A DNA stretch of 64,000 nucleotides from Acidobacteriota bacterium (GTDB lineage: Bacteria; Acidobacteriota; Aminicenantia; S016-38), in assembly GCA_015486055.1 (NCBI GenBank), contig WFSJ01000042.1, positions 12,518 to 76,517 on the forward strand, in the 5' to 3' direction. The position numbers and the translations under genes were made by a program. Below are positions 9,487-58,890 of this stretch, piece after piece. A model generated the notes under the pieces. That model saw only the letters and a list, made by a program, of their open reading frames with translations. It did no database searches and was not told the DNA's origin. The first letter of the stretch is position 1, and each line of letters starts with the position of its first letter.

Positions 9487-9493
9487 AATTAGG

Positions 9494-9522
9494 ATTGTAG
9501 AACGCAAAGCCTTTCAGGGCAA
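9494..9522 (-). promoter_or_regulatory. sigma70-like promoter of the kinase gene, apparently leaderless
   Basis: TTGCCC-17-TACAAT, then 7 nt to ATG 9486; no SD. Confidence 0.6.
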
Positions 9523-10774: not shown

Positions 10775-12502
10775 ATGGTAATAGTGCTGAAAATTCTTAA
10801 ACCCTCCATTCCAAAATATATAGCTCTGAAAGAAGGAAAATATGTTATTGGAAGAGAAGAAGGTGCTGACATAATACTTGACAACAATACCGTTTCAAGG
10901 AAACACTGTATTTTAAAATGGAAGGATGCCTGGTTCATAAAAGATATTGATAGTAAAAATGGGGTTTATCTGAACGGAAATAGAATAAAAAAAACCGAGA
11001 AAATAGAGGACGGAGACAATATAAAAATTGGAAGGATTCCTATCCTCATTGAGATGTTTAACAAGGATGATTACCTTCCCGAACAGATTTGCTCCTCGCC
11101 GGTGAATATAAAATTTGAGGAAGATGAAACAGACAGGCTTATAATCAGGGAAAGAACCTCAGACGTGGAAAATCGAATAATGAACCTCACCAAAACAATG
11201 CATTCTCTACTCGAAACCGATTTTGAGAGGGAGCTAAGGAATATTTTAAGCAAGAGGGGGATTGAAGATATAGGAGCAATAAGGTTTGAAAAATCGCGAC
11301 TGACCTTTCTCACCGTTCTTTCATCCTTTAACCCCGAAGAAATTTACAAGGAAAAAAATCCAAAGGAAAATTTTGACCTTCACCTTCCGGATTCCTTCTT
11401 CTACAACAGATATCTTGAGAAAGTAGATGGTGGCTATTACATCATTAGCAAATCCATAATAGAGGAAAGAATCCTCTCCCTTCTTGACATGGTCTTCCGG
11501 TATTTTTTTCTCCTTCATCAGGAATACCGAAAGATTATTCACAAAAAAAAGGAATTCATACCCAAAGAATATGTTTTTGAATCTCCTATAACAAGAGAAA
11601 TTCTCGATTACATAGGAGAAATAGCTGGGAAAGATGGAAATGTTTTAATAGAAGGGGAAACAGGGGTAGGCAAGGAGGTTATTGCCAATCTTCTTCACAA
11701 ATTAAGCCCAAGGGCAAATGCGCCTTTTATAACCTTGGTTTCCACTGCAATTCCCGAAACTCTCGCAGAAAGTGAGCTCTTCGGGGTGAGGGAAAAATCT
11801 GTAACTGGGGTAGAAGGAAAGGAAGGGAAGTTTGAAGCTGCAAATCACGGGAGTCTCTTCTTTGATGAAATAGGGGATATGCCCCTTTCAATCCAGGGAA
11901 AATTACTCAGGGCAATAGAGCTCGGAGAGATTCTTAAAATAGGAAGCACCAAACCTATAAAAGTAGATGTAAGGATAATAGCAGCTACTAATAGAAACCT
12001 TGAAGAAGGTATAAAAGAAGGATGGTTCAGGAAGGACCTCTATTTTAGATTATCATCCTTCAAGGTTCACATTCCTCCCCTCAGGAAAAGAAGCGAGGAA
12101 ATAATTCCTCTTGCTTATAAGTTCGCCGAGGAATACTCAAAAAGATTCTCAAAGCCATTCAGGGGGATCACGGAAAAAGCCAAGAAATTCCTTCTTGACT
12201 ACGAATGGCCTGGAAACATAAGGGAATTAAAGGATGAGATGAGAAGGACAATGGCAAAAATAGGCGAGGACGGGGTGCTAAGTGCAAAATTACTCTCAAA
12301 ACAAATAAATCAAGGTATCCTGAAGAAAGCAAATTCTCCCTCGGACATGGGATTAAAAAGCGTAGAGAAGGAAACCATAATAAAAGCTCTGGAAAAGACA
12401 GGCTGGAATAAAACTAAGGCATCTGCACTCCTTGGGATAAGCAGGGTAGGACTTATAAAGAAGATTAAAAGGCTTGAAATAGAAAAGGAAGATAAAAAGT
12501 GA
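10775..12502 (+). CDS. FHA-domain sigma54-interaction (NtrC/Fis family) transcriptional regulator
   Basis: FHA (IGR, VSRKH, SKNGVYLNG). AAA+ domain with GETGVGKE, FFDEIGD, RKDLYFRL, WPGNIREL. Fis-type HTH. GAFTGA is replaced by KSVTGV. Confidence 0.9.
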   Translation: MVIVLKILKPSIPKYIALKEGKYVIGREEGADIILDNNTVSRKHCILKWKDAWFIKDIDSKNGVYLNGNRIKKTEKIEDGDNIKIGRIPILIEMFNKDDYLPEQICSSPVNIKFEEDETDRLIIRERTSDVENRIMNLTKTMHSLLETDFERELRNILSKRGIEDIGAIRFEKSRLTFLTVLSSFNPEEIYKEKNPKENFDLHLPDSFFYNRYLEKVDGGYYIISKSIIEERILSLLDMVFRYFFLLHQEYRKIIHKKKEFIPKEYVFESPITREILDYIGEIAGKDGNVLIEGETGVGKEVIANLLHKLSPRANAPFITLVSTAIPETLAESELFGVREKSVTGVEGKEGKFEAANHGSLFFDEIGDMPLSIQGKLLRAIELGEILKIGSTKPIKVDVRIIAATNRNLEEGIKEGWFRKDLYFRLSSFKVHIPPLRKRSEEIIPLAYKFAEEYSKRFSKPFRGITEKAKKFLLDYEWPGNIRELKDEMRRTMAKIGEDGVLSAKLLSKQINQGILKKANSPSDMGLKSVEKETIIKALEKTGWNKTKASALLGISRVGLIKKIKRLEIEKEDKK

Positions 12503-14422: not shown

Positions 14423-16663
14423 TTAGAATCTATAAATAAAGCTTAAATTTGCTCCTCTTCCTGGGGCATAAACATTCGGGAAGGAGCTTGGTTCTCTATA
14501 TTCCTTATTAAACAGGTTTGTTATAGAAATTACAAGTTTTATTCCTTTAAATAATTTAGCACCTCCATAAAGGTCAATTACGGTGAAAGCATCCGCAGGT
14601 AGATCTCCTTTAGCCACTTCTTTCTCTTTTGCACTGTATCTTATATAACTCTCCACCCAAAATTTTCCCTTTGCAAAGTTCTTTATGATCTCAAAGTTAG
14701 CCTGTAGAGGAGGAATATCCATAAGAAGTTCGTTATTTTCAACATCCTTCCCATATATTTTTGAGAGAGAAAGAATCGTTTGGAAACCCTTCTTAAATTG
14801 TCCTGCCACAAAGAGCTCAAATCCGTAAATTTTAGCCTTCCCAAGATTCTTGAAAATTCCGATTCTGTTTCCTGTAGGTTGATTCCACTTTATAGCTATC
14901 ATGTTCTTTATGTCGTTGTAGAATAAGGACGCCTCTCCGTAAAGCCTAAGGCATTTTTTTGTTTTTCTGAACTTTAACCCGAAATCATAGTTGTAACTTC
15001 TCTCAGGAAGAAGCTCAGGACTCCCTATGTTCATTCCACCTGGTGTGGAGCCAATGTAATATTTTTCTTTAACTGAGGGAATTCTGAATCCACTCCCAAA
15101 GTTCGCATAAAGATTTACAGAATCTGAAATAGAGCTTGTAAGTCCTAAATTTCCACTGAGTGCACCCTGTTTCCCTTTGCCTTTCTCTCCATTCCCTCTT
15201 CTCGCATAATCCTTAAAATAGTCATATCTCAGTCCGAAATTTATAACAAGTCTCTGCGAAAGCGCAAGGGTATTCTGCATGAACATTCCGTAATCTCTCT
15301 GATGCGCATTTTCCACATATATTTCCTTTTTTTTATTTAAGAGAGTGTCTTCAGGAAGTTTATACAAGCTCTTTTCTCCTTTAAGATAAATGTTTTCTCT
15401 AAAATATCCTTCCATCCCTACAACCGATGAAAGCTTTTCGCTGAAGTCAAAAGTTCCTTCTAAGGAGGCATTATATTCATCTCTACCCATGTCTCTAAAA
15501 TTTTCTACTTCCTCTTGCTCCTCAGGAATTTTCTTATTGAATTTAACTGTCGTATGAATTTTGTGCCTGTAAAGGAAAAAATTGAGAGAATTCAACACAG
15601 GAGATATATTTGTCCAGGAGTATCGGAAGGAGATTATGCTCTGCCCATCCTCGGGATGAATTGCCTTTAGTGAAGGAGAAAAGGTAGGTTTTCCTATATC
15701 CTTCCCTTTAGAGTTGAAATAGGAAAAGGAGAATTTATTATTTTTACCCAGCACAAAGTTAAAGTTTCCATGAAAAAATTTCTCATCAAAGCCGGCATTT
15801 ACCCTCTCCCCTGTCGCTGTTTTGTAATCCTCTGCTTTTCTCCATCCAGAAGAAAGAGCAAATGAAACTTTTTCATTTCCCCCCATAAAATTTGCATAAG
15901 TATTGAAACAGGAATTTATAGAAAAATAACTTCCTGCAATTGTTCCTGAAGTTCTGAAGCGAGAATCATAAAAGAAGGGTTCCTTTGTTTTTACTTCTAT
16001 AACCCCTGCAATTGCCTCGCTACCATATAGAGTAGAAAAAGGTCCCTTCATAACCTCCACCGTATCTATATCAAAGGGATTGATAAAGGATAGGTCTGGT
16101 CCAACATTCATTTCCTTATATAGCCTGACCCCATCAAATAGCATCAGAGCTCTTTTCCTTGCCATACCCCTGACGGAGGGAGAACGGTAAAATCCATTAC
16201 CTGTAAAGTAAATTCCGGGAAGCTTCATTATCTCATCAGTTAAAGTTGAAGATGGCTCCCTCGTTATATCTTTATCTGTGATAATTGCTGTAGAATAAGG
16301 AAGTTCAAATCCTGTTCTATCACTTTTGGATGCAGTTACCACAATATCTTCAAGTGGAGCTATAGTTATTGGTTTAAGCTTAAGTTTTACCTCGATTTTA
16401 ATTGAATTTTGCACCCTGATAATCTCTTTCTTAGACCTATAACCTTCCTTTGAGAATTCTAATTGATAGGTCCCAGGTTTTACAGAAAGGGAAAACTCAC
16501 CATTTTTACTGGTATAAGTAGAAAGCACAGTGCCCTTCACCTTAATTCTTACCCCTATTAAAGGGTTCCCTATAGGATCACTGACCTTGCCAGAGATCCA
16601 CACCTTATCCAACGCATAAAGGGTTAATGTAAACCCTAAAAGAAATATCAATACTTTCTTCAT
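14423..16663 (-). CDS. TonB-dependent outer-membrane receptor with an N-terminal carboxypeptidase-regulatory-like domain
   Basis: Signal peptide from MKKVLIF (ATG 16663, SD AGGAGG). IVVTAS, VEVMKGPFSTLYGSEAIAGVI plug, PELLPERS, NLFNKEY and a terminal Phe. Confidence 0.92.
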   Translation of the reverse strand: MKKVLIFLLGFTLTLYALDKVWISGKVSDPIGNPLIGVRIKVKGTVLSTYTSKNGEFSLSVKPGTYQLEFSKEGYRSKKEIIRVQNSIKIEVKLKLKPITIAPLEDIVVTASKSDRTGFELPYSTAIITDKDITREPSSTLTDEIMKLPGIYFTGNGFYRSPSVRGMARKRALMLFDGVRLYKEMNVGPDLSFINPFDIDTVEVMKGPFSTLYGSEAIAGVIEVKTKEPFFYDSRFRTSGTIAGSYFSINSCFNTYANFMGGNEKVSFALSSGWRKAEDYKTATGERVNAGFDEKFFHGNFNFVLGKNNKFSFSYFNSKGKDIGKPTFSPSLKAIHPEDGQSIISFRYSWTNISPVLNSLNFFLYRHKIHTTVKFNKKIPEEQEEVENFRDMGRDEYNASLEGTFDFSEKLSSVVGMEGYFRENIYLKGEKSLYKLPEDTLLNKKKEIYVENAHQRDYGMFMQNTLALSQRLVINFGLRYDYFKDYARRGNGEKGKGKQGALSGNLGLTSSISDSVNLYANFGSGFRIPSVKEKYYIGSTPGGMNIGSPELLPERSYNYDFGLKFRKTKKCLRLYGEASLFYNDIKNMIAIKWNQPTGNRIGIFKNLGKAKIYGFELFVAGQFKKGFQTILSLSKIYGKDVENNELLMDIPPLQANFEIIKNFAKGKFWVESYIRYSAKEKEVAKGDLPADAFTVIDLYGGAKLFKGIKLVISITNLFNKEYREPSSFPNVYAPGRGANLSFIYRF

Positions 16664-16673
16664 ATTTATCCTC

Positions 16674-16924
16674 CTATTTTTTTGTCTCAAATGTTAAAGT
16701 TGCAGCATAAGAAAGCCAGTTGCATTCATTCTTTACCTCCTGAGAAGAAGGAAGTTTATATTTTACCTTTATTAAGCAAACACCACTGCGTAAGAACTTT
16801 ATTTTTCCTATACCTCCCCATCTGTCTGGATAGCATAAGGTCCTCATTGCCTTTGCACACTTTATTGAGGCCACCACTTTGGGGCAACAGGCATTCTTCT
16901 AAGATCAATAATATATTGCTTCAT
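16674..16924 (-). pseudogene. Possible frameshifted TusA/SirA-like sulfur-carrier remnant
   Basis: One frame gives MKQYIIDLR and an adjacent frame continues NACCPKVVASIKCAKAMRTL. Together they resemble the TusA N-terminus xxDxRGxxCPxPxxxxKKAL. Confidence 0.4.
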
Positions 16925-17724: not shown

Positions 17725-19818
17725 TCATAAGAGAATCCCAATCTGATAGATTAAAACAGAGAGGAACCATCCAAGAATAAGACTATAGCTCACTGTAACA
17801 AGCGCCCATCTCCATCCAACCTCACTTTTAATTGTAGCAACAGTAGCTATGCAGGGAATATAAATGAGAGACATTACCATAAACGAATAGGCAGAAATTG
17901 GAGTGAAGTAATGAGGCAATACATTTGAAAGAATCTTTGCACCGCCAAAAAGCGTTCCAAATGTGCCAACAACGACCTCTTTCGCTAGAATTCCAAAAAT
18001 CAGAGCTACTGCTGCCTGCCAGAAGCCAAATCCTGCAGGTTTGAATATTGGCGCAATGAACTTTCCAATTTGACCTATTATGCTTTCCCCCGATGCGTAT
18101 TCGACGCCGACGGGAAGTGAACTCAAAATCCAGATTACAACTACTGTTCCAAAAATAATTGTTCCAGCCTTTGTAAGAAATAACCTGCTTCTAAGCCACA
18201 TCTCCTGCAGAGAATTTTTCCACTGGGGCAACCTATAAGGTGGAAGCTCCATAATAAGCGGGGCAACTTCCTCTTTGAAAAATATACCCTTCATAACCTT
18301 CGCTACAAAAATAGCAAGCACTATCCCGAGGAGATAGAGTGAGAACACTACTATGTCCTCATGCCCAGGGAAAAATATAGACGCAAAAAGCACATAGATG
18401 GGCAGCCTTGCTGAGCAGGACATGAGGGGAATCACAAGAATGGTCAAAATTCTGTCTTTCCTTGACTTAAGTGTCCTTGTTGCCATAATCGCAGGCACAT
18501 TGCAACCGAATCCAAGAATCATGGGTATAAAGGATTTTCCATGCAGGCCAAGAGTATGCATAAACTTGTCCATAACAAATGCGGCACGGGTCATGTAACC
18601 GCTGTCTTCAAGAATGGAGATCACAAAGAACAGAAGCAGGATATTTGGCAAAAATACAATAACAGCTCCCGCGCCACTGATCACCCCGTTAGTGATAAAG
18701 GAAATTAAGGCATTAGATGCACCAATACCTGTGAGGAGATTTGAAATCCATGAGCTAAGATAGTCAAATCCAGCACTGATTAAGTCAGAGAGCGGACCTC
18801 CGAGTGCAAAAACGATCTTGAATGTTAGATACATCATCGCAAGGAAAATGGGAATCCCGAGTACTCGGCTCATTACAACACGGTCTATCTTATCAGAAAG
18901 TTCACGCGACGCCTTCCTTCTCCTTTTCCTGGTTACACACTCAGAGACAATCCCCTTTATAAATCCATACCTCGTTTCAATTAAAGAGGTAATAATATCG
19001 TTGTCTATTTCTTTTTCAACTTTAGCGGCAAGTGTTTGGATAAAGTTCTCTATATTCTTGATGCCATATTTTTCCCTCACCATGTGCATTATATGCTGGT
19101 CTCCTTCAAGAAGTTTCAAAGAAAGCCACCTCAAGTTTCCGTTCACATGATAATTGGAGAGAAGAGTAGAAACTTCTGACACTGCATTCTCGGCTGAGAC
19201 ATGATAGTTTATAAAGGGGCTTTCAGAAACTATCGTGGTAGAACTCGGGTAAGGACATGATTTCTTAAAAGGGCACATGCTGTAAAACGGACAGGTTGTA
19301 TCACACTCACAGGTTATTTTCATAGATTCGTAGGCAAAAATGATTGCGTCCTTCATCGTATCAATACCAGCCCCCTTGTTCGCAACAGTTTTAACAATCG
19401 GTCTTTTAAAAAGAAGGGAAAGTTTCTCCTCGTCAATCTCAAGTCCTTCTGCCTCTGCAAGGTCAGCCATATTAAGGTCAATCACCACATTCATGCCCAT
19501 TTCAATAAGTTCCATTACAAGATATAGGTTTCTTTCCAGATTTGATGAATCTACAATGCAAACTACTGCATCGGGTTTTTCTTGAAACAAATAGTCCCTT
19601 GCAATCTTCTCATCGATAGAAGCAGCAGAAAGTGAATAAATTCCAGGGAGATCCACTACTTCAATTTTGATACCTCTATATGTAAAATAGCCCTCCCTTT
19701 TTTCAACGGTTACACCGGGCCAGTTTCCCGTTCGCTGATGGGATCCTGTTAAATTATTGAAGATTGATGTCTTTCCCGAATTTGGGTTACCTGCAAGTGC
19801 AATTTTTATCCTCCTCAT
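17725..19818 (-). CDS. feoB: Ferrous iron transporter B
   Basis: GNPNSGKTS, GNWPGVTVE, DLPGIYS, NMAD, GFGCNVPA, SCSARLP and MELPPYRLP. Confidence 0.97.
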   Translation of the reverse strand: MRRIKIALAGNPNSGKTSIFNNLTGSHQRTGNWPGVTVEKREGYFTYRGIKIEVVDLPGIYSLSAASIDEKIARDYLFQEKPDAVVCIVDSSNLERNLYLVMELIEMGMNVVIDLNMADLAEAEGLEIDEEKLSLLFKRPIVKTVANKGAGIDTMKDAIIFAYESMKITCECDTTCPFYSMCPFKKSCPYPSSTTIVSESPFINYHVSAENAVSEVSTLLSNYHVNGNLRWLSLKLLEGDQHIMHMVREKYGIKNIENFIQTLAAKVEKEIDNDIITSLIETRYGFIKGIVSECVTRKRRRKASRELSDKIDRVVMSRVLGIPIFLAMMYLTFKIVFALGGPLSDLISAGFDYLSSWISNLLTGIGASNALISFITNGVISGAGAVIVFLPNILLLFFVISILEDSGYMTRAAFVMDKFMHTLGLHGKSFIPMILGFGCNVPAIMATRTLKSRKDRILTILVIPLMSCSARLPIYVLFASIFFPGHEDIVVFSLYLLGIVLAIFVAKVMKGIFFKEEVAPLIMELPPYRLPQWKNSLQEMWLRSRLFLTKAGTIIFGTVVVIWILSSLPVGVEYASGESIIGQIGKFIAPIFKPAGFGFWQAAVALIFGILAKEVVVGTFGTLFGGAKILSNVLPHYFTPISAYSFMVMSLIYIPCIATVATIKSEVGWRWALVTVSYSLILGWFLSVLIYQIGILL

Positions 19819-36646: not shown

Positions 36647-37617
36647 TAGGGGCAGGAAGCTGGGGAACCGCCTTCAGCTATCATTTGGCAAGGAAAGGGA
36701 TAAAAGTAAAACTATGGGTAAGGGAAAAAGAACTATTTGAGAAAATAAAGAATGAAAGAGAAAACACATGGTTTCTTCCTGGCTTTAAGCTAAACGAGAA
36801 AATTGAACCCTTTAATGACCTTTCTCTCTTTTCTGAGCAACCACCTGAGCTCACATTCCTTGCGGTGCCGACAAAATACATGAGATCTGTCCTGAGGAAA
36901 TTCCCTGCAAGGCCAAAAGTAGTAGTGAACCTCTCCAAAGGAATAGAGGTGGAGACCCTCGCGAGAATGAGCGAAGTCATAAGGGAAGAACTCGGCATGG
37001 TGGAATATGCTGTTCTTTCAGGCCCGACCTTCGCTTTAGAAGTAGCAGAGGGAAACCCAACTGTCGTTGTGGTAGCCTCAAAAAAATATGAGCTTGCGAA
37101 AAAGGTTCAGGAAATTGTCTCTGACCAGTATCTAAGGGCATATACATCCGACGATGTTCTTGGGGTAGAGCTCTGCGGAGCAGTGAAAAATGTCATAGCT
37201 ATAGCTGGAGGGGCTGTAGAAGGCCTCGGCTTCGGGCACAATACACTTGCAGCCCTTATAGTGAGGGGAATTGCTGAGATGAAAAGGATTGCAAACGCAA
37301 TGGGAGCAAACCCCGAAACAATATCAGGGATAGCAGGAGTAGGTGACCTTGTCCTGACAGCCACAGGAAATCTCAGCAGAAACAGAAAAGTAGGATATGA
37401 GCTCGGCAAAGGAAAATCCTTAAAAGAGGTTCTTTCTTCCATGAAGATGGTGGCAGAGGGAATCGAGACATCAAAGGCCATTGTAAAGCTCGCCGGGAAA
37501 TATGGTGTTGAAATGCCCATATCGGAAAAGATGGTAGAGGTCGTATTTGGAGGGAAAAATTTAAAGAAAGCCTTAAAGGAACTTATGACAAGAAAATTAA
37601 AGATGGAAAATGAATAA
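36628..37617 (+). CDS. gpsA: NAD(P)H-dependent glycerol-3-phosphate dehydrogenase
   Basis: GAGSWGTA, SKGIE, SGPTFA, KNVIAIA and GDLVLTATGNLSRN. Confidence 0.96.
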   Translation: MEGIYIIGAGSWGTAFSYHLARKGIKVKLWVREKELFEKIKNERENTWFLPGFKLNEKIEPFNDLSLFSEQPPELTFLAVPTKYMRSVLRKFPARPKVVVNLSKGIEVETLARMSEVIREELGMVEYAVLSGPTFALEVAEGNPTVVVVASKKYELAKKVQEIVSDQYLRAYTSDDVLGVELCGAVKNVIAIAGGAVEGLGFGHNTLAALIVRGIAEMKRIANAMGANPETISGIAGVGDLVLTATGNLSRNRKVGYELGKGKSLKEVLSSMKMVAEGIETSKAIVKLAGKYGVEMPISEKMVEVVFGGKNLKKALKELMTRKLKMENE

Positions 37618-39121
37618 GCTCTACGTAGAAATTTTAGACAAGAAAGGGAATAAAACTTACAGAATAGAAGGGAATTCTGCCACAATTGGAAGGGCCACGG
37701 GAAATGATATAACCATAAAGGATTCCACAGTTTCAAGAAAACACGCGGAGATATTTTTCAAGGAAAACAGATGGTATATAAAGGATCTTAAAAGCACCAA
37801 TGGAACCTTTGTAAACGGGAAAAAAGTCAAAGGTGAAATGAGGCTTTACGAAAAGGACATAGTGGAAATAGGTAAAAGAAGCATAATTCCTATCAAACTC
37901 CCTTCAGGTATGGAAATAGGGAAGGAAAAGATCCCTCAGGATATAACATACTTTATTGGTGACTTAGAAAAGAGAAAATGGGCCAGAATAATGGAAGGGA
38001 TTGAGGAAATAGGAAAGGAATTGGTGGCCTTATCTTCCTACGATAGAATTCTGAACAGAGTGGCTGAGGTAGCCAGGGAGATCTTAAATGTAGAAAGAGC
38101 CTTTGTAGTGCTCAAAAAGGAAAATAAGTTTAAGTTGGCGGCAACATCAGTAAAGAAAGGGATTGAAGGCGGTATTACCATAAGTGAGTCTATATTAAAA
38201 AGGGCAATGGAAAGTAAGGTTGGAATAATAACCCAGGATGCACTGAGTGACAAAAGATTCTCCGGGCAAAAGAGCATAATGAACATGAAAATAAGATCTG
38301 CAGTATGCGTTCCCATATGGAGAAGGGAGGAAGTTCTCGGAGCTATATATGTTGACAGCTCCATAGACAAGAGAATTCACACTGAGGAAGATGTTGAACT
38401 CCTTTCAATCCTCGGAAACTATGTAGCAGTAGTGATAGAACAGAAAAGAATAATGGAAGAACTGAAAAAGCAGCAAAGAATGAGGGAAAGGCTGGAAAAA
38501 TACCATTCTCCTGCTGTAGTCCAGAGGATATTCAGCAAGGGACTTGAAACAACATTCATCCCCAGAAAGTTCTTTATGGGAGAAGGAACAGTGCTTTTTG
38601 CGGATGTAGTAGGATTTACTTCCTTAGTTAGTGAAGGAAAACCTGAGGAAATAGGAAATCTTCTTAACGAGTTCCTTTCAAGGATGACTGACATCGTTTT
38701 CAAATATGAAGGCACTCTTGATAAATACTTAGGAGACGGGGTAATGGCAGTTTTCGGAATCCCCATGAAGCAGGAAAACCATGAAGAAAGAGCCCTGAGG
38801 ACTGCTATTGAAATGCAGAGGGAAATTGAAAATACAAAATGGAAGAAACCGCTAAAAATAAGAATAGGAATAAATTCAGGAGGGGTAATAGCAGGGGATT
38901 TTGGCTCTGAAAAAAGACTTGAATTTACTGTCATAGGACACAGCGTAAATATCGCCTCCAGACTCCAGAGTGAGATCGCTCCACCAGGCAGAACTGCTGT
39001 TGGGGAAAAAACATACGAGAAAACAAAGGAAAAATTTGAGTTTGAATCCCTTGGAAAAGTAAAAGTGAAAGGAATAAAGGAAAAAATGGATGCATATTTA
39101 CTTAAGGAGGAAAAGAAATGA
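37610..39121 (+). CDS. FHA-GAF-class III adenylate cyclase
   Basis: FHA (IGR, VSRKH, STNGTFVNG), GAF (RSAVCVPI...GAIYVD), and cyclase (FADVVGFT, DKYLGDG, FTVIG..VNIASRL). Confidence 0.92.
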   Translation: MNKLYVEILDKKGNKTYRIEGNSATIGRATGNDITIKDSTVSRKHAEIFFKENRWYIKDLKSTNGTFVNGKKVKGEMRLYEKDIVEIGKRSIIPIKLPSGMEIGKEKIPQDITYFIGDLEKRKWARIMEGIEEIGKELVALSSYDRILNRVAEVAREILNVERAFVVLKKENKFKLAATSVKKGIEGGITISESILKRAMESKVGIITQDALSDKRFSGQKSIMNMKIRSAVCVPIWRREEVLGAIYVDSSIDKRIHTEEDVELLSILGNYVAVVIEQKRIMEELKKQQRMRERLEKYHSPAVVQRIFSKGLETTFIPRKFFMGEGTVLFADVVGFTSLVSEGKPEEIGNLLNEFLSRMTDIVFKYEGTLDKYLGDGVMAVFGIPMKQENHEERALRTAIEMQREIENTKWKKPLKIRIGINSGGVIAGDFGSEKRLEFTVIGHSVNIASRLQSEIAPPGRTAVGEKTYEKTKEKFEFESLGKVKVKGIKEKMDAYLLKEEKK

Positions 39122-39864
39122 GAAAAATTGTAATTTTAACTCTAATGAGCATATTGGTTATACCTATCTACGGGAGGAAAAAGAAGAAAAAAGACGAATT
39201 CTATTATTACAATATGGGCCTTTCCATGCTGCAGAAAAAACAACCTAACAAAGCGATTGTATATCTTGCAAAGGCAGAAAATTTAAATCCAAAGAACTTT
39301 CAAATATTTCATGCATTGGGCATATCCTATTCAATGGCAGGTAACCTGGACAAAGCTGAGTTCTACTTCAGGAAATCAATATCACTTAATCCTGCTTATG
39401 GTCCCTCACATAATCTTTTAGGGGTTATACTTATAGAAAAAGGAAAATACAAAGAGGCTGAAGCTGAGTTCAAGAAAGCGCTTGAGGACATAGGATATCC
39501 CACAAAAGAGATAGTGTATTTCAACATGGCAAAGTTGTATTTAAAAATGGGGAATCAAGAGAAGGCCCTTGCATCCCTTGACTTTGCCATAGGAGCTGAC
39601 AAGGATTATGGAATGGCTTATGCTCTAAAAGGCTATATATACTTTTCAAAAGGGGAATTATCCAAGGCCGAGGAATTTTACAGAACAGCATTAGAAAAGG
39701 AAAGAGATAATCCAAGATATTGGTTTGGCCTCGGAGAAGTCCTTGAAAAAGAGGGAAAGATAGAGGATGCTAAGGCTGCTTACAGCAAAGTTCTCGTGGT
39801 ACCCTCCGATACTGAATTAAAAATAAGAGCAGAGGAAAAACTCAAAAAACTTGAAAAAAAATGA
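39118..39864 (+). CDS. Exported tetratricopeptide-repeat protein (PilF/PilW-like)
   Basis: Signal peptide followed by tandem TPR motifs. Confidence 0.8.
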   Translation: MRKIVILTLMSILVIPIYGRKKKKKDEFYYYNMGLSMLQKKQPNKAIVYLAKAENLNPKNFQIFHALGISYSMAGNLDKAEFYFRKSISLNPAYGPSHNLLGVILIEKGKYKEAEAEFKKALEDIGYPTKEIVYFNMAKLYLKMGNQEKALASLDFAIGADKDYGMAYALKGYIYFSKGELSKAEEFYRTALEKERDNPRYWFGLGEVLEKEGKIEDAKAAYSKVLVVPSDTELKIRAEEKLKKLEKK

Positions 39865-39909
39865 ACTCGTTATATTATAAAAGTAGAAAGAAAAAATAGG
39901 GGTTAAAAA

Positions 39910-41721
39910 ATGAAAAAATTTTGTAAGTTCTATGAGCTCAAAAAAATAGCGACAAATGCCCTTGGGGAAGTTTACCTCTCTCTCACGAGAGATGAAAAAA
40001 AGGAAATTTCCCCGTTTATGGTTGTTAACCTAAGGGAAGAGTTCAACCTTGAAAGAAGATGGAAGGCTCTCACCGATTATCTTGAGTTCAGCAAGACCCT
40101 GAACCACCCCAATATCCTAAGATATGATACATGGGGAGAGTGCAAGCAAGGGAGATATGTTGCAGCAAGAGCTAAAGAATATTTCTCACTGGGCTCAATA
40201 ATTAAAAATTTAAAGAAGAGAAATCTCCCGTTCACTTTTGATATACCAGTTCATGCAATCCTCCAAATTATCTCCGGGCTTCAATACCTGAACAACATTC
40301 GCTACAAAGATTCTGCCATCTATCACAATATTCTCTCACCCGATGAGATTCTTATAAATCTTGATGGAGTCGTCTACATAAACAATGCGGGAATTCTTCA
40401 AGCCATTTCAGAGGATAGAAAGCTGGCCAAAGACCTCATAGTGGAAAGGAGCACATTCCTTCCCAAGGAACTAATTGATAGAGCGAAACCCTCCCCAAAG
40501 GCTGATGTCTATTCGGTAGCATCTCTACTTTTCTTCCTCACCACTGGAAAATACATTTCTCCGGAGAAAAATATTGAACTTCAGCTCAAAAATACTCCAC
40601 TCATAATGGAGTTCGAGGGAAAGAAGGAAATACCTGAGGAACTTCAGAAGATTCTATCAAACGCCCTCGCACCCGAGGAAACAAGATACCAGAACATTGA
40701 AATACTCCGTTCCGCCTTTGATGATTTTATAACCAAAGAGGACATCTCTCCCACCACATTCAATTTGGCCTATTACATGAATACCCTTTTCCATGATGAA
40801 GTCCTTGAAGGAGAAAAACTTGTAAAAAGAGAATCTGAAAAGGTCCCTGTAGAGATAGTGGAAGAACCTATCGAGAAGGAAACTGAAAAAGAGGAAGCGG
40901 AAAAGAAAAAAGGATTTCCTATGGTAGCCGTTATCGGCAGTTTAGCCGTAATATTAATAGCAGTTATTATTGCTATAGTATTCATGGGAAAACCGAAACA
41001 ACCCGTAATTTCTCAGGCAGAGCTTGATAAAAGGATCAATCAACTCGTTGAAACAAAGATGAAGGAAAGAGAAGCAGAGCTAAAAAAGGAGTACGAAAAT
41101 AAATACGGAAAGATAAGCCAGCAGGACGAAGAAAAACTCAAGAAACAGCTTGAAGAAGAGAGAAAAAAGCTTGCAGAGAAGGCAAGAGCTGAGGAGTTAG
41201 CGAAGCTCAGGAAAATTCAGCAATCGAAGAAAAAGCCTGTCCTTCCCTCTGTAGAGAAGAAAGTCGAAAAGCCAAAGGAGGAAGTAAAGCAGGAAGAGAC
41301 TAAGGCAGAAATTCCTCCTCAAAAGACTTCGGAGGTCCAGCAGCAAAAAAAAGAAGAAGTTGAGAAGAAACCCGCAGTGGAAACAAAACCACAGAAAATT
41401 TCTGCACCTGTTTCAAAGCCTGAAGTTATACCAGGTTCTGTTGTACCGATTACGGAATTAGATTCTCCTCTCAAACTTGTGAAAAAAATCCCCCCCCGGA
41501 TTCCTGAGAGGGCAAGGAGGCTCAGAATAAGAGGAAGTGTTATGGCTTCAATCATGATCAATGAAAACGGGGAAGTTGAACAGGTAAGGATCATTCGCGG
41601 AACCCCAAAAGGCTATTTTGAAAAGGAAGCAGAAAGAACTCTCTCTATGTGGAAATTTACCCCTCCCAGAAAAAAAGGAGTTGGGGTTAAGGTCTGGAAA
41701 GTTGTTACAATAAAATTCTGA
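39910..41721 (+). CDS. Pseudokinase-TM-coiled coil-TonB C-terminal domain fusion
   Basis: Kinase fold (LNHPNIL, KADVYS) with eroded catalytic motifs. TM MVAVIGSLAVILIAVIIAIVFM. C-terminus P.RARRLRIRGSV...INENGEVEQVRI...WKFTP is TonB_C. Confidence 0.82.
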   Translation: MKKFCKFYELKKIATNALGEVYLSLTRDEKKEISPFMVVNLREEFNLERRWKALTDYLEFSKTLNHPNILRYDTWGECKQGRYVAARAKEYFSLGSIIKNLKKRNLPFTFDIPVHAILQIISGLQYLNNIRYKDSAIYHNILSPDEILINLDGVVYINNAGILQAISEDRKLAKDLIVERSTFLPKELIDRAKPSPKADVYSVASLLFFLTTGKYISPEKNIELQLKNTPLIMEFEGKKEIPEELQKILSNALAPEETRYQNIEILRSAFDDFITKEDISPTTFNLAYYMNTLFHDEVLEGEKLVKRESEKVPVEIVEEPIEKETEKEEAEKKKGFPMVAVIGSLAVILIAVIIAIVFMGKPKQPVISQAELDKRINQLVETKMKEREAELKKEYENKYGKISQQDEEKLKKQLEEERKKLAEKARAEELAKLRKIQQSKKKPVLPSVEKKVEKPKEEVKQEETKAEIPPQKTSEVQQQKKEEVEKKPAVETKPQKISAPVSKPEVIPGSVVPITELDSPLKLVKKIPPRIPERARRLRIRGSVMASIMINENGEVEQVRIIRGTPKGYFEKEAERTLSMWKFTPPRKKGVGVKVWKVVTIKF

Positions 41722-52646: not shown

Positions 52647-52667
52647 ATAATAATAGTGGAGGTAAAA

Positions 52668-54704
52668 ATGAGATTAAAAGCTTTTGGTTTGATAGCCTTG
52701 ATAGCAATGACGGGGTTTGCCTTCTCGCAGGGTTCCTCTGCGGATATTCAATATAAATACTTTGCCAGAATCAGTTCCCTTGAAGGACAGGGATTCATAG
52801 AAAAAGCAGGAGGGGAGGGCATAGAAGATGCGACAGTGAATATGCCCCTCGGTGAAGGCGACAGAATCTTCACAGGGGAAAATGGAAGGGCTGAGCTATA
52901 TGTGGGATATTCTACATACATAAGGATGAATAGAGCCACCAAACTCGACCTTATAGTTCTCCCATACACAGAAGATAAAAAAATAGAAATTCGTCTTATA
53001 AATGGTGACATATACATAAACAAGCTCAGGAAAGGGCTGAGAGCCTATATAGAAGTAAGAGACGGGGAATTTTTACCAATAGAAAATGGCAGTTACAGAA
53101 TAAGCTCCAATGGAGAGGAAATCAGATTTGCCGTGGAAGATGGATATGGAGAACTCAGGATTGGAGGCGAAGATATAGACATTGGTTCAGCAGAAATGGT
53201 TGTCGTATCAGGTAATAAGATTTACGGCCCAGAAAGGCTTAAAAGATTTGATGATGAATTTGCATCATGGAATGAGGAAAGGAACAGAAACATAGAGAGG
53301 GGTTATCGTTATAAGAAATATCTTCCTCCAGAACTCACAGATTACGCATGGGAATTTGAGGACTATGGAAGTTGGAGATATGCGCCACCTTACGGTTGGG
53401 TATGGGTACCAAGAAGAATATATAACGATTGGATGCCCTATTACTATGGCTACTGGGAATGGGTCCCTGGAGGATGGTTCTGGGTAGGATACGAACCCTG
53501 GGGTTGGGCTGTTTATCACTATGGACGCTGGGGGTGGAGTCCAATATTCGGATGGTATTGGATCCCGGTTCCAAGGTGGGGATACGCATGGGTTGAATGG
53601 ACCTGGTTTGATGATTACATCGGTTGGTGTCCTATGGATTTCTACGGAAGGCCGATAATAATAATCAACAATGGCTTGTACAACTATTATGACTATGTTC
53701 CTATCCACTCCTCATCCTGGATATTCGTAAGAAAGAGTCAATTCGCAGCAAGAAACATAAGGAGAACCGCCCTTAGAAAAGGTCAACTGAGAGCCACAGG
53801 AGTTTCAAAAGTCAGGGTATTTTCATCTCAGCCAAAATTAAGGCCGGTTTATGCTGTACAGAAAACCAAGATGGGTTATAAGAAAGTTGTATCCGGAGTT
53901 TCTCCAGCCACAGGGTTCTCAAAAGCAACAGCGGTAAGAAAAGACACCTACAAATCCTCTTCAGTATGGTCAACCTCCAAGAAAGAAGCAATACCAAAGG
54001 GAGCAATAAGCAAAAAAACCGAGGTCAAGAAGAAAACTTCTGCAGTGAAGGGTTTCACATCTTCAAGCTCAAGCAGCTCTTCCAAGAAAAAGGCCAAAAA
54101 GAAGAAAGGCGGGGGAGGATATCCCTCTTCATCCTATAAAGCATCCTCATCCTATGGAATTAGCCATTCCAGGGATGGGGCAAGAGTAAGAACATACAGG
54201 GAAAGTAAGAGAAACTCAGCAAAAAGAGATAGAAATTATTACGGGTCATACAGGACTTACATTAGGAACTATTCAGGATATTATCATGGATCAGAAAAAG
54301 ACAGAAGCGGATATTTAAGGGTGAAAGGAAAGAATAATAACAACTACTATGGATATGGAAATTCTCACAGTAAGAATTACAGTAGAAATTATTCTGGAAG
54401 CTATTACGGTTATAACCGTAGCAGAAGTTATGTCAAGCACTATCCGAGCTCTTATAGCAGAAGTTACGAAAAGAAGAGGAGTTCAGGAAGTATTTGGTCC
54501 TTTATTTTCGGTTCTTCAAAACCAAAATCCCGTTCATATAGCTCTTCCCACAGTTCTTATGGAAGAAGCTATTCAGGAATAAATCACTCATATAGCTCTT
54601 ACCGAAGCTCAGGATGGAGCCATTCATCCTGGGGTTCATCAAGGAGCTCAGGTTACAGCTCCAGCCATTCGTCAAGCTATTCTTCAGCAAGAAAAAGGCA
54701 TTGA
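52668..54704 (+). CDS. Secreted FecR-like/DUF6600-type protein with Trp-rich repeats and a Ser/Tyr/Gly/Arg low-complexity tail
   Basis: Signal peptide; NMPLGEGDRIFTGENGRAEL (FecR-like); YGSW..YGWVWVP, EPWGWAVYHYGRW and IGWCP. Start ATG 52668 after GGAGG. Confidence 0.8.
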   Translation: MRLKAFGLIALIAMTGFAFSQGSSADIQYKYFARISSLEGQGFIEKAGGEGIEDATVNMPLGEGDRIFTGENGRAELYVGYSTYIRMNRATKLDLIVLPYTEDKKIEIRLINGDIYINKLRKGLRAYIEVRDGEFLPIENGSYRISSNGEEIRFAVEDGYGELRIGGEDIDIGSAEMVVVSGNKIYGPERLKRFDDEFASWNEERNRNIERGYRYKKYLPPELTDYAWEFEDYGSWRYAPPYGWVWVPRRIYNDWMPYYYGYWEWVPGGWFWVGYEPWGWAVYHYGRWGWSPIFGWYWIPVPRWGYAWVEWTWFDDYIGWCPMDFYGRPIIIINNGLYNYYDYVPIHSSSWIFVRKSQFAARNIRRTALRKGQLRATGVSKVRVFSSQPKLRPVYAVQKTKMGYKKVVSGVSPATGFSKATAVRKDTYKSSSVWSTSKKEAIPKGAISKKTEVKKKTSAVKGFTSSSSSSSSKKKAKKKKGGGGYPSSSYKASSSYGISHSRDGARVRTYRESKRNSAKRDRNYYGSYRTYIRNYSGYYHGSEKDRSGYLRVKGKNNNNYYGYGNSHSKNYSRNYSGSYYGYNRSRSYVKHYPSSYSRSYEKKRSSGSIWSFIFGSSKPKSRSYSSSHSSYGRSYSGINHSYSSYRSSGWSHSSWGSSRSSGYSSSHSSSYSSARKRH

Positions 54705-56479: not shown

Positions 56480-57187
56480 TTACCCTATAAAGAATTTATC
56501 CTTTATGATCTCCTGCTCTTTGCCGCGAAGAGACTCCCAGACATTTTTTGCTGCATTGGACATTGCCTCTTTTTTAGATCTTCCCTCACCTATCTGTTTC
56601 AGGAGGACTGGGCCCTCTATTTTCACTTCCACCACAAAGGTCTTTCTGTGCTGAGGTCCCTGCTCTGATATAACTTTGTATTCAGGAGGAGGGAAGCCCT
56701 GTTTCTGGACGAATTCCTGAAGGGCGGTGCGGTAATCAGCGGGTCTCCCTGTGGTCTTTGAGATAATTTCCATTTTATCCTCAAGGGCAGACACTACTAT
56801 TTTCTCTGCTTCCTCAAAGCCTCCGTCAAGGTAAACAGCGGCAGCCCAGGCCTCGAAAACATCGGAAATTATGGAGTCATTGTCCCTTCCCCCGCTTTTC
56901 TCCTCACCCTTCGAGAGTTTTATCTTCTTATGAAGCCCGAGTTTCCTTGCTGCTTCTGCTAAACTTTCTTTGGAGACAAGAGCCGCCCGCAGGTTGGACA
57001 TTTCACCCTCGTCCATTTGAGGAAAATTGAGAAAGAGCCATTTGGAAACGATAAAGTTAACTACTGTGTCCCCTAAGAATTCAAGCCTTTCGTAATTAAA
57101 GTTCTTATCTCTTCCCTTCTCATTTGCATAAGAGGTATGGGTCACCGCCATTTCAAAAAGATTTCTATCCTTAAATTTATAGTTCAT
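56480..57187 (-). CDS. rnc: Ribonuclease III
   Basis: NYERLEFLGD, DVFEA and a C-terminal dsRBD. Confidence 0.97.
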   Translation of the reverse strand: MNYKFKDRNLFEMAVTHTSYANEKGRDKNFNYERLEFLGDTVVNFIVSKWLFLNFPQMDEGEMSNLRAALVSKESLAEAARKLGLHKKIKLSKGEEKSGGRDNDSIISDVFEAWAAAVYLDGGFEEAEKIVVSALEDKMEIISKTTGRPADYRTALQEFVQKQGFPPPEYKVISEQGPQHRKTFVVEVKIEGPVLLKQIGEGRSKKEAMSNAAKNVWESLRGKEQEIIKDKFFIG

Positions 57188-58890
57188 TTTACTTTACCAA
57201 CAAAAACTGCAATGTCATCCGGAGGGATTTCCCTCCCAAAGAATCTCTCAGCTTCAGTTAATATTCTATCAAGAATTTGCTGTGGCTGAAGATGAGAATT
57301 CTTCTTTATAATTCTCTCAATTCTCTCTGTGCCAAACATTTCAGCTCCACTGCTGGATGGAAGCTCGCTAAGCCCATCAGTAAAAAGAACGAGTATATCT
57401 CCTTTTTCTATCTGTATTCTCGTTGTTTTCGTAAGTTTCTCTATATTTTTTAATATACCTATCCCAATACCCGCTGGTTTTATGAGCATTATTTCTTCCA
57501 AACCTGTAGTGGAAAAGGGCCTGTATAATATCATGGGCTGATGCCCTGCTCTTGCTACTTCCATTTCCCCTCTGGAGAGTCGAACAGCAGTAAAAGTTAT
57601 AAAATGAGTAGGATGCAGATGAGGAAAAAGAATCTCGTTTGTCTTTTCAACCACGGATTTAAGAGGAAGACCTGACCTTATAAAAGCAGTAACAACCCCT
57701 TTGAGCATGGCTCCGAAAAGGGAAGAGTAAAGGCCCCTTCCCGAAACATCAGCCATCAGTATAAAGCAATTCTCTCCTTCCTTTATTATGTCGTAAAAAT
57801 CCCCTCCAACTCCTCTTGCTGCAATTGTGAGGGCAGAGTGTTCTAAATATGGGATTTCTTCTTCCTGGGGAGGCATGAGCCTTAGCTGAATTTTTCTCGC
57901 TATCCTTATCTCTTCTTCAAGCATATTCGCAATATTTTCACTCTGGGCGAGAGTCCCCAACCTCTTCACCATACCATCAAAGCTTTCCATTATCCTTCCC
58001 AGTTCGTCTTTCCTCTTGGTCTTAATTCTAATTGAAAGGTTACCGTTCTTTATTGCTCTTACTGCAAAGGAAAACTTGGAAAGCGCCTTGGTTATATCCA
58101 TGGTTATAAGAAATCCTCCTCCCATGGCTGCCAGGTTTAGGAAGGAAAGCACGATAGCGAAAAACAGAAAGGAAAAGAACAGAGAGTTGGAAATGGAACT
58201 TTTCCCCCTTACTATACCGTTTACAAGGCTTCCAAAAGTAGCTTTAGCGAGAAAAACTGCACCGTCATACTCGTTTCCATCATCAAAGGAATAAACATCT
58301 CCAGAAAAAATCACAGGGAAGCTGAATCCTTTACCCTCTGTCTTTGTCCCCATGTTTCTTATATTCACTTTTTTCCCTTGCCTTTGAAAAAGATATGGTG
58401 GAAGATAAACCTTTATTCCATACTCATCCATGAAGAAATCCGAAACAGAATTGTTAATGGGAAAAATTTTCCTTCCTCTTCTGTTGACTGCGAGGAAAAA
58501 TTTCTTACCATTTAAAATTATGCCCTCAAATCCCTTTCTAATTTGAAGATCAGTTTTTACTCCAGCCTCTCCCTTTTCCATTTCCTCAAATTTATAATCA
58601 AACCACCCCATGATAAGCGTGCTTGTAAAACCTGCAAACATAACATATACAAGAAGAAATGCCATAATAATTAAGAGAACCACAGGAATAAGTCCTGCAA
58701 GAAGGTGGGAAAAAATCAGCCTGTTCTTTATCTTGTAAAGGAATCTTCTGAATACATAAGGGAAAAATATTATAAGGACAAGTAAAAGAAAAATTGATGT
58801 GATAAAGATAAAGCTATATAAATTTCTGGCCTTAAAAATTACCGCAAGGAGATAAAGGAAAAGAAGCAAAATTAAGCTTTTTTCCCTCAT
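57184..58890 (-). CDS. Membrane HAMP + SpoIIE/PP2C (RsbU-like) Ser/Thr phosphatase
   Basis: TM helices, HAMP (RKDELG), GGDFYD, ADVSGRG, FTDGLSE and PDDIAV. Confidence 0.88.
   Translation of the reverse strand: MREKSLILLLFLYLLAVIFKARNLYSFIFITSIFLLLVLIIFFPYVFRRFLYKIKNRLIFSHLLAGLIPVVLLIIMAFLLVYVMFAGFTSTLIMGWFDYKFEEMEKGEAGVKTDLQIRKGFEGIILNGKKFFLAVNRRGRKIFPINNSVSDFFMDEYGIKVYLPPYLFQRQGKKVNIRNMGTKTEGKGFSFPVIFSGDVYSFDDGNEYDGAVFLAKATFGSLVNGIVRGKSSISNSLFFSFLFFAIVLSFLNLAAMGGGFLITMDITKALSKFSFAVRAIKNGNLSIRIKTKRKDELGRIMESFDGMVKRLGTLAQSENIANMLEEEIRIARKIQLRLMPPQEEEIPYLEHSALTIAARGVGGDFYDIIKEGENCFILMADVSGRGLYSSLFGAMLKGVVTAFIRSGLPLKSVVEKTNEILFPHLHPTHFITFTAVRLSRGEMEVARAGHQPMILYRPFSTTGLEEIMLIKPAGIGIGILKNIEKLTKTTRIQIEKGDILVLFTDGLSELPSSSGAEMFGTERIERIIKKNSHLQPQQILDRILTEAERFFGREIPPDDIAVFVGKVK

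Follow-up and report, generated by a model that had tools for sequence, protein, structure and literature searches.

A gene joining a protein kinase fold to a TonB C-terminal domain (TonB_C) is carried by the 64,000-nucleotide (nt) stretch of DNA analysed here (hereafter, the window; contig WFSJ01000042.1 of assembly GCA_015486055.1), which comes from an Acidobacteriota bacterium of the class Aminicenantia. The gene is a 603-amino-acid (aa) open reading frame at 39910..41721 (+), intact from ATG to stop. Its product, named P0001 below, is a bitopic inner-membrane protein with a dead Hanks-type kinase fold inside and a genuine TonB_C domain outside. It belongs to a single-copy clade of pseudokinases found in about a third of the sampled Acidobacteriota, and this family is old, under purifying selection and not decaying. 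With a probability of about one half, we infer that P0001 is a non-catalytic, envelope-spanning adaptor working with Hanks kinases. Members of the family are called short forms in the following, to distinguish them from a longer paralogue encoded in the same genome.

Both ends of P0001 are identified by profiles and by structural comparison. In Pfam, residues 12-257 match Pkinase (PF00069) with 51.3 bits for a cut-off of 31.7, and residues 529-603 match TonB_C (PF03544) with 58.5 bits for a cut-off of 24.6. The NCBIfam model tonB_Cterm (TIGR01352) gives 54 bits for a cut-off of 27.1. A phmmer comparison with the sequences of the PDB connected the N-terminus with kinases, including StkP (E 6.5e-8) and WNK1, and the C-terminus with the TonB of E. 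coli (1xx3, E 8.8e-11). A model of P0001 made with AlphaFold2 (AF2) from an 82-row alignment has a mean predicted local distance difference test score (pLDDT) of 84.2. In this model, residues 1-310 adopt a bilobal protein kinase fold with pLDDT above 90, for which the best Foldseek matches are PknA, PknB, Stk1 and Nek7 (target TM-score ~0.7; E about 1e-12 for the first three), and the TonB_C domain, residues 511-603, reaches ~97. Confidence is low across the transmembrane segment. On the periplasmic side, two helices (369-399 and 404-439, pLDDT ~80-88) form a hairpin, in which E388 and L414 do not vary across alignment A2, and residues 442-502 are disordered. A first interpretation, made from the letters alone (hereafter, the sequence-only reading), had described a kinase fold, one transmembrane helix, a coiled coil, a Lys/Glu/Pro linker and a TonB_C domain, and had proposed a Pfam scan and a structure prediction as checks. 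Each detail of this build was recovered, with Pkinase and TonB_C above their cut-offs and the kinase fold modelled (Table 1).

The kinase fold has lost its catalytic residues, all six hallmark elements of an active Ser/Thr protein kinase being replaced or degraded in P0001. In an alignment with StkP, the query stretch I-Y-H-N-I-L-S-P-D-E-I-L is placed under I-V-H-R-D-L-K-P-Q-N-I-L, and N-A-G under D-F-G. The Gly-loop reads IATNALG, with one Gly left. The column of the beta3 Lys holds V39 or N40, varying with the alignment, and that of the alphaC Glu holds Y57. The HRD Asp, the catalytic-loop Asn and the DFG Asp correspond to I141, E146 and N159, respectively. Structural residues are retained, namely H139, P144, G153, P186-E187, D199, G213 and R259. 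These motifs were counted in P0001 and 80 loci (81 rows), and in 18 short forms from genomes of other families; genes at the fetched loci were called with our own open-reading-frame heuristics. The HRD Asp is found in none of the 80 readable rows (one has a gap) and in none of the 18 further short forms. The catalytic-loop Asn is kept in 2/80 and 2/18, and the DFG Asp in 7/80 and 0/18, the seven rows belonging to the Holophagaceae/Geothrix group and to one other group. The beta3 Lys is present in 3/78 and 1/15, Arg occupying this position in 57/78 rows. Most relatives read H-G-F at the HRD column, compared with H-N-I in P0001. In the C-lobe, by comparison, H139 is conserved in 76/81 rows, D199 in 80/81 and R259 in 71/81. 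Within the N-lobe and the catalytic loop, alignment A3 has two invariant residues only, P144 and G153. Thus, the lost motifs listed by the sequence-only reading (IATNALG, FMVVN, HNILSPDE and NAG) are confirmed, and the survey of homologues that it had suggested shows a loss conserved across short forms rather than limited to one copy (HRD Asp, 0/98).

The best-conserved stretch of the family, above the kinase core or TonB_C, is located just after the kinase, at residues 279-294 (I-S-P-T-T-F-N-L-A-Y-Y-M-N-T-L-F). Together with the residues that follow it, up to 310, it is modelled as two helices, 283-293 and 295-309, with pLDDT above 90. Across the family this post-kinase motif is xT-F-N-L-A-F; T283, F284 and A287 occur in 99/99 short forms, and the column of T282 contains Thr in 88 and Ser in 9 of them. 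FHA domains bind pT-x-x-L sites, and the Leu at position +3 of T283 recalls such a site. A phosphosite in the T282/T283 region would nevertheless be a speculation, because these residues cap a confidently modelled helix.

Short forms are distributed over a large part of the phylum. A word-indexed search retrieved 12 full-length orthologues with 51-57% identity, and more distant proteins share both Pfam domains. When prokaryotes were scanned with each species represented by a single genome, 407 relatives were found; the best 80 of these 407 are titled Acidobacteriota-group, Aminicenantes or 'uncultured bacterium', the groups named in their titles being Aminicenantes, Thermoanaerobaculia, Holophagae, Vicinamibacteria and Sulfidibacter. 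Among them, locus L069 is titled Sulfidibacter corallicola strain M133, and L075, L088 and L089 bear the titles of Thermoanaerobaculum and Geothrix MAGs. A profile of 79 columns of the signature region (A7) separates short forms (at least 60.9 bits) from long forms (at most 46.9 bits). It was applied to 301 Acidobacteriota genomes with a completeness of at least 90%, a sample in which related genomes are tallied together. Exactly one A7 match of at least 60.9 bits, in a frame of 467-837 aa, is present in 104/301 genomes, one of which (G052) is unpublished. Presence is all-or-none by genome family, as illustrated by f30 (20/20), f3 (10/10) and f28 (0/8). Searched against 1.84 billion representatives at 50% identity, A7 matches 511 proteins at E <=1e-3 and 320 at E <=1e-10. 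In those of ~580-770 aa, the motif nearly always lies at about residues 245-335; shorter entries look like fragments. A strict DNA pattern, P-T-T-F-[ND]-[LM]-A, was also tried and set aside. It recovered 45/301 genomes, with 0 in the reversed control, and is too narrow, S-T-F and other variants being in use.

All parts of the protein are constrained, to different extents. For the closest usable pair of orthologues (L016-L017), the ratio of nonsynonymous to synonymous substitution rates (dN/dS) is 0.08 in the pseudokinase, 0.00 in the signature helix, 0.04 in the transmembrane segment and hairpin, 0.32 in the spacer and 0.02 in TonB_C. dS is saturated in most orthologue pairs and is finite for the kinase domain in 3/15; in these three pairs, the dN/dS of the kinase domain is 0.06-0.08. 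In a tree of kinase domains, 40 short forms make up one clade (Shimodaira-Hasegawa-like approximate likelihood ratio test, SH-aLRT, 99) and 21 long forms another (98). Since the 40 short forms group together, the catalytic residues would most simply have been lost once, before these classes split.

The long form is the second gene of this genome encoding both a Pkinase and a TonB_C domain. It specifies a protein of 961 aa and is found at G000:C5:28078-30963 (-), corresponding to L114:6082-8964 (-). The protein is composed, in this order, of a receiver (REC)-like domain (residues 20-133), a K/E-rich linker, a kinase domain, an F-M-Y-S-L-F helix, one transmembrane helix, a spacer and TonB_C. Its kinase motifs are intact (G-G-M-A-E, V-A-L-K, D-E-A-K, H-R-D-V-S-P-Q-N, D-F-G and S-P-E), and all catalytic motifs are kept in 21/21 long forms, that is L114 and 20 others from diverse genomes. 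Among these 20, Pfam recognizes Pkinase in 20/20, TonB_C in 20/20 and Response_reg in 18/20. The long form resembles the short form by its transmembrane helix, spacer and interchangeable TonB_C, and by a related post-kinase helix, F-M-x-x-L-F. It differs by its intact catalytic core, its N-terminal REC-like domain and K/E-rich linker, and it has no T-T-F-N-L-A motif. In the REC-like domain, the column of the phospho-acceptor Asp (P-D-L-V-x-x-D) contains Ser, Ala, Glu or Arg in 21/22 rows of alignment A6, Asp being found only in L097, and the N-terminal acidic pair reads D-Y, E-Y or F-F. This domain therefore looks like a pseudo-receiver. With its receiver residues lost, the long form would be an active kinase with a dead receiver, and its twin has a dead kinase.

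The TonB_C domains of the two forms have a history of their own. When a tree is built from the C-terminal 100 residues, the two forms are intermixed, and well-supported branches force at least 4 changes, unlike the kinase domains, which separate cleanly. The TonB_C domain of P0012, a short form 53% identical to P0001, groups with that of L114 (support 99; 63% identity), an apparent recent domain swap between paralogues. Likewise, the TonB_C domains of f30 short forms group with the f30 long form (support 98), and an approximately unbiased (AU) test rejects a single clade of 41 short-form TonB_C domains (p 5e-6). The most simple explanation of such exchange or conversion would be that both forms fit the same periplasmic partner.

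Co-occurrence was evaluated by crossing the A7 survey with a survey using a long-form profile, over the 104 short-bearing genomes. A long-form match reaching the end of TonB_C is present in 59/104. In 15/104, the match begins in the REC-like domain or the linker and stops early, 3 of these 15 being full length, and in 1/104 it is ambiguous. In carriers of family f40 (for instance G063, G089 and G144, where the motif reads P-T-T-F-N-M-A), the match covers profile positions ~281-634 within frames of 620-980 aa; either the long form has lost REC and TonB_C in this family, or a different kinase replaces it. The match of G189 (C1:518205-520556 (+)) contains three in-frame stops (1 TGA and 2 TAA), leaving an open frame of only 771 aa; a damaged copy or a fault of the assembly may explain this.

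As an adaptor, P0001 would work from both sides of the inner membrane. Outside, TonB_C would dock by strand addition onto a periplasm-exposed partner, which could be an outer-membrane protein with a strand resembling a TonB box, or some other component of the envelope. Inside, the rigid pseudokinase and the invariant T-F-N-L-A-F helix would present active Hanks kinases with a surface for docking or allosteric control. Among these kinases, the leading candidate would be the co-occurring long form, with its pseudo-receiver, active kinase, transmembrane helix and TonB_C; in view of the swaps of TonB_C between short and long forms, both probably read the same periplasmic target. Ser/Thr phosphorylation would result and be recognized by FHA proteins, including, in this lineage, the FHA-GAF-cyclase encoded two genes upstream. 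The sequence-only reading had proposed modelling a complex with the active kinase. The wider data point away from the kinase encoded in the window, and to the paralogue encoded on another contig, which has the same transmembrane and TonB_C build.

Several points weigh against an adaptor role alongside active kinases. The binding of P0001 to any partner is itself inferred. A complex prediction with the long-form kinase (residues 320-660) and the pseudokinase (residues 1-312) gave a score of 0.00 without controls, and speaks neither for nor against binding. Moreover, 25/104 short-bearing genomes, mostly of family f40, have a match to the long-form profile in the kinase core only, 4/104 have no long-form match at all, and a full long form occurs in 4 genomes that lack a short form. 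Taken together, the co-occurrence counts indicate that pairing of the two forms is common and not obligate. In the kinase-domain tree, short and long forms do not come out as sisters; the long forms are nearer to the other active kinases of the genome, which may be a long-branch effect. The motif columns counted above rest on MAFFT alignments made with fast settings, and their placement is approximate where rows are most divergent. Like transport TonBs, the protein has an intact TonB_C domain and a K/E/P spacer. Finally, gene neighbourhoods vary by lineage and are mostly of the housekeeping type, so that operon context gives no single functional clue.

A more elaborate and doubtful version of the adaptor role may be imagined, namely an unrecognized mode of trans-envelope signalling in Acidobacteriota. 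The TonB_C 'antennae' of kinase and pseudokinase would bind one common strand, outer-membrane or periplasmic, such as the TonB box that a loaded receptor exposes, and occupancy of this strand would be converted into Ser/Thr phosphorylation. The FHA effectors would be the cyclase at this locus and sigma-54 activators elsewhere in the window. Such a system, if true, would correspond to cell-surface signalling of the FecA-FecR type, but based on phosphorylation, with TonB_C as a sensor and not as a force transducer.

Other explanations should be weighed against the adaptor. The one surviving best, although it is unlikely, views P0001 as a structural envelope tether or morphogenetic factor linking the inner membrane to peptidoglycan or to the outer membrane, with the pseudokinase as a cytoplasmic anchor. 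Outside Aminicenantia, the directly upstream gene encodes YceG/MltG, a peptidoglycan enzyme, at 23/72 loci, RuvX at 9/72 and, divergently, LptD at 8-9/72, and a single-copy gene in housekeeping operons would suit a structural role. There are precedents for TonB-like proteins of this kind. SjdR shapes septal peptidoglycan and does not serve transport (PMC8262864). Myxococcus GltJ (AgmX) is made of a cytosolic region, a transmembrane helix, a flexible region and TonB-C (PMC11135422), which P0001 matches in build only: a cytosolic domain, one transmembrane helix, a flexible region and TonB_C. The NCBIfam model of the AgmX/PglI C-terminal domain gives a weak match to P0001 (E 1.5e-4, 21.9 bits for a cut-off of 40). 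However, the cytosolic part of GltJ is not a kinase fold, and GltJ belongs to the Agl-Glt gliding machine, which has its own TolQR-like motor. P0001 does not appear to belong to a machine of this type, TolQ/R/ExbB/D-like neighbours being seen at 3/129 fetched loci only (short and long forms together, 1.37 Mb), in a search that did not extend to Glt genes. In addition, a tether leaves unexplained the kept kinase fold, the co-occurring active twin with the same TonB_C and the conserved REC-like domain of this twin, and the synteny with MltG is missing in Aminicenantia, the class of the window itself.

It is still less probable that P0001 would be a specialized TonB paralogue energizing a subset of TonB-dependent receptors, its pseudokinase only regulating or localizing it. 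The strong conservation of TonB_C would fit this explanation, as would the coexistence of 9 Plug-domain receptor genes and one canonical TonB in the genome. P0001 also shares with E. coli TonB an N-in bitopic topology, a charged, Pro-containing periplasmic spacer (here K/E/P-rich) and a C-terminal TonB_C. It differs by a 300-aa cytoplasmic pseudokinase in place of a short tail, by its periplasmic helical hairpin and by the features that would connect it to a motor. Its transmembrane helix (residues 336-360) contains no His, and the SxxxH motif used for ExbB/ExbD coupling is absent from the transmembrane windows of all 99 short forms and all 21 long forms (0/99 and 0/21), where the sequence is poorly conserved. 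No ExbB/D gene is seen near 39910..41721 within the window, and the 3/129 loci mentioned above are the only ones with ExbB, ExbD, TolQ or TolR homologues. In the same genome, contig C15 carries a canonical tonB, with the transmembrane motif L-S-V-V-F-H (SxxxH), followed by exbB and exbD, and contig C34 a complete tolQ-tolR-tolA-tolB-pal cluster with a TolA-like transmembrane motif, F-S-I-L-L-H (SxxxH). Hence exbBD and tolQR each already stand beside an SxxxH-bearing partner. Furthermore, an energy transducer has no need for a 300-aa pseudokinase under purifying selection or for an invariant post-kinase motif. P0001 is not a canonical TonB; it does not have the features through which TonB and TolA are coupled to ExbBD and TolQR. 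This agrees with the sequence-only reading, which had noticed the missing His and had suggested signalling rather than powering of transport. On the receptor side, the only Plug-domain gene of the window, 14423-16690 (-), encodes a TonB-dependent receptor with an N-terminal CarboxypepD_reg domain near feoB, 17725-19818 (-). In genome G035, an ExbB/TolQ-like gene (L094:4926-5690 (+)) lies divergently ~900 nt from the long form, the sole such case among 20 long-form loci.

Very little credit can be given to the idea that the kinase fold is still an enzyme, using non-canonical chemistry or residues, such as the relocated Lys of WNK kinases or the activities of AMPylating and glutamylating 'pseudokinases'. 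The Arg frequently found at beta3 and the DFG Asp kept in seven rows could be taken in its favour, and some bacterial pseudokinase families may retain ligand binding (PMC12599244; bioRxiv 10.1101/2025.01.12.632604). However, in P0001 and its class the HRD Asp, DFG Asp, beta3 Lys, catalytic Asn and alphaC Glu are all replaced, the Gly-loop keeps one Gly, and no alternative acidic or basic residue is invariant in the N-lobe or the catalytic loop of alignment A3. As for a recently inactivated, decaying kinase gene, which has the missing motifs and nothing further in its favour, it can be practically dismissed in view of the intact frame, the absence of the HRD Asp from all 98 readable relatives, the low dN/dS in the three pairs with finite dS and the presence of one copy each in 104 genomes; neither of the outcomes that the sequence-only reading had named as fatal to a pseudokinase, the lack of a kinase fold or a dN/dS close to 1 together with intact orthologues, was observed.

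Compared with known systems, the nearest structural and sequence neighbours of the N-terminal domain are the PASTA-type Hanks kinases PknB, StkP and Stk1, which share with P0001 a cytoplasmic Hanks fold, one transmembrane helix and an extracytoplasmic sensor-type domain. In P0001, however, the catalytic residues are gone and the outer domain is TonB_C. The NCBIfam model of PASTA kinases (NF033483) gives 58.9 bits for a cut-off of 450 and Pfam shows no PASTA match, which sets this assignment aside. In M. tuberculosis, MviN is phosphorylated by PknB and then bound by FhaA. MviN (MurJ) contains a pseudokinase domain, ActPs3, which does not bind ATP (PMC12599244). P0001 is likewise a membrane-tethered bacterial pseudokinase in an envelope context, with an FHA protein encoded nearby in its lineage, but it belongs to a different clade and is fused to TonB_C, MviN being fused to a flippase. 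ActPs3 is actinobacterial and is distinguished by a deletion of ~40 residues in the activation loop (bioRxiv 10.1101/2025.01.12.632604); P0001 has 27 residues between N159 and P186 and aligns through the activation segment of StkP, which rules this family out. GLW pseudokinases, mainly of proteobacteria, have G-L-W in place of HRD and a poly-Leu/Trp beta3 (PMC12599244). They are ruled out by the H-N-I of P0001, the H-G-F of most relatives and the occurrence of the family in Acidobacteriota. EssB/YukC of type VIIb secretion is a monotopic membrane pseudokinase acting as a scaffold, in which every catalytic motif is degraded and the C-terminal part is extracytoplasmic (PMC12599244). P0001 shares with it the membrane location, the degraded motifs and the extracytoplasmic C-terminal part, but EssB/YukC is found in Firmicutes, where its gene lies in operons for the secretion system, and it lacks TonB_C. 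Around the P0001 gene and at the loci of the family, no genes for secretion were seen. EssB/YukC was not among the matches listed (60 PDB sequences and 40-odd Foldseek rows), in the absence of a comparison dedicated to it.

The genomic surroundings of the gene are those of a housekeeping region. It is preceded, in this order, by cinA, a 2H phosphoesterase gene, plsY, gpsA, the FHA-GAF-cyclase gene and a TPR gene, whose start overlaps the cyclase stop by 4 nt, and it is followed by a convergent DUF92 gene. The whole upstream block is kept at 5/5 close loci of genome family f1 and 2/2 of f5, and is not found in f3 (0/5), where the upstream genes encode a sigma-54 response regulator, DUF374 and phosphofructokinase, or in f2 (0/2). 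The synteny with cyclase and TPR genes, for which the sequence-only reading had suggested a survey, therefore stands in f1 and f5 and fails in f3 and f2; where present, it is part of the larger conserved housekeeping block. In f2, the gene immediately upstream, in the same orientation, encodes an active Zn-ribbon-Pkinase-TPR protein of ~930 aa in 2/2 genomes (L136:3509-6298 (+), L142:395-3181 (-)). The long-form gene L114 precedes accD, a folC-like gene, rlmN and uvrA. Overall, the genes of the family are found in housekeeping or envelope operons, connected in places with kinases and FHA proteins. The 1.86-Mb genome contains 8 FHA domains and 10 kinase-fold genes. Ser/Thr signalling is dense in the window, which also encodes a sigma-54 activator with an FHA domain, a TPR protein ending in an active kinase domain (210 bits) and a phosphatase of the HAMP-PP2C (SpoIIE) type. 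A promoter-like sequence, TTGAAA-16-TATTAT, occurs at 39851..39878 (+), in the 45-nt gap before the gene, with 10/12 matches; it was not retained, the region having 15 such sites compared with 15.6 in shuffles. Elsewhere in the window, at 52656-54704 (+), a 682-aa open reading frame has DUF6600 (77.8 bits) as its sole Pfam match.

Table 1. Positions in the window of the P0001 gene, of the parts of its product and of related genes (res, residues)
Feature	Position	Strand	Basis
Whole gene P0001: pseudokinase, transmembrane helix, helical hairpin, linker, TonB_C	39910..41721	+	Open reading frame, Pfam, orthologues
Cytoplasmic pseudokinase domain, res 1-278	39910..40743	+	StkP alignment, motif tables, AF2, Foldseek, dN/dS
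Signature I-S-P-T-T-F-N-L-A-Y-Y-M-N-T-L-F and next helix, res 279-310	40744..40839	+	Conservation, AF2
Acidic cytoplasmic juxtamembrane linker, res 311-335, KKKGFP at end	40840..40914	+	Sequence; pLDDT 43-71
Single transmembrane helix, ~res 336-360, no His/SxxxH	40915..40989	+	Hydropathy peak 3.24
Periplasmic membrane-proximal helical hairpin ('coiled coil'), res 369-439	41014..41226	+	AF2
Disordered Lys/Glu/Pro-rich spacer, res 440-510	41227..41439	+	pLDDT ~41-45; fastest-evolving part
TonB_C domain, res 511-603	41440..41718	+	Pfam, TIGR01352, PDB 1xx3, pLDDT, dN/dS
TPR protein, N-terminal hydrophobic segment, directly upstream	39118..39864	+	Pfam TPR families
FHA-GAF-adenylate/guanylate cyclase, two genes upstream	37610..39121	+	Pfam FHA 82.9, GAF_2 50.6, Guanylate_cyc 114.5 bits
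Ser/Thr-signalling genes of the window	10775-12502 (+), 6982-9507 (-), 57184-58890 (-)		Pfam

Seven bacterial pseudokinase families are listed in a 2025 review (PMC12599244) and in the bSTK Atlas preprint (bioRxiv 10.1101/2025.01.12.632604). The terms 'TonB' and 'Acidobacteri' are absent from the main texts of both, supplements being a separate matter, and a full-text search of the literature showed no description of a fusion of a kinase or pseudokinase to TonB_C. In the ESM Atlas, clusters of relatives are automatically named 'TonB family protein', 'hypothetical protein' or 'protein kinase', and each of these public labels misleads about function. Four relatives whose public names were looked up have no recorded name. 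In our view, the short forms make up a pseudokinase family that extends across the phylum and has not been described before; its domain partner is new, and it is paired with an active twin.

Bacterial pseudokinases have barely been studied, and this family adds a single-copy member for which the outer domain and the active twin are both defined. The invariant T-F-N-L-A-F provides a simple marker of the family and a handle for mutagenesis. The conservation of this build in Acidobacteriota, usually together with an active kinase twin, points to an undescribed form of envelope-crossing signalling. If TonB_C does act as a sensor, it would represent a new input to Hanks-type signalling and a new role for a domain that is mostly known for transducing force.

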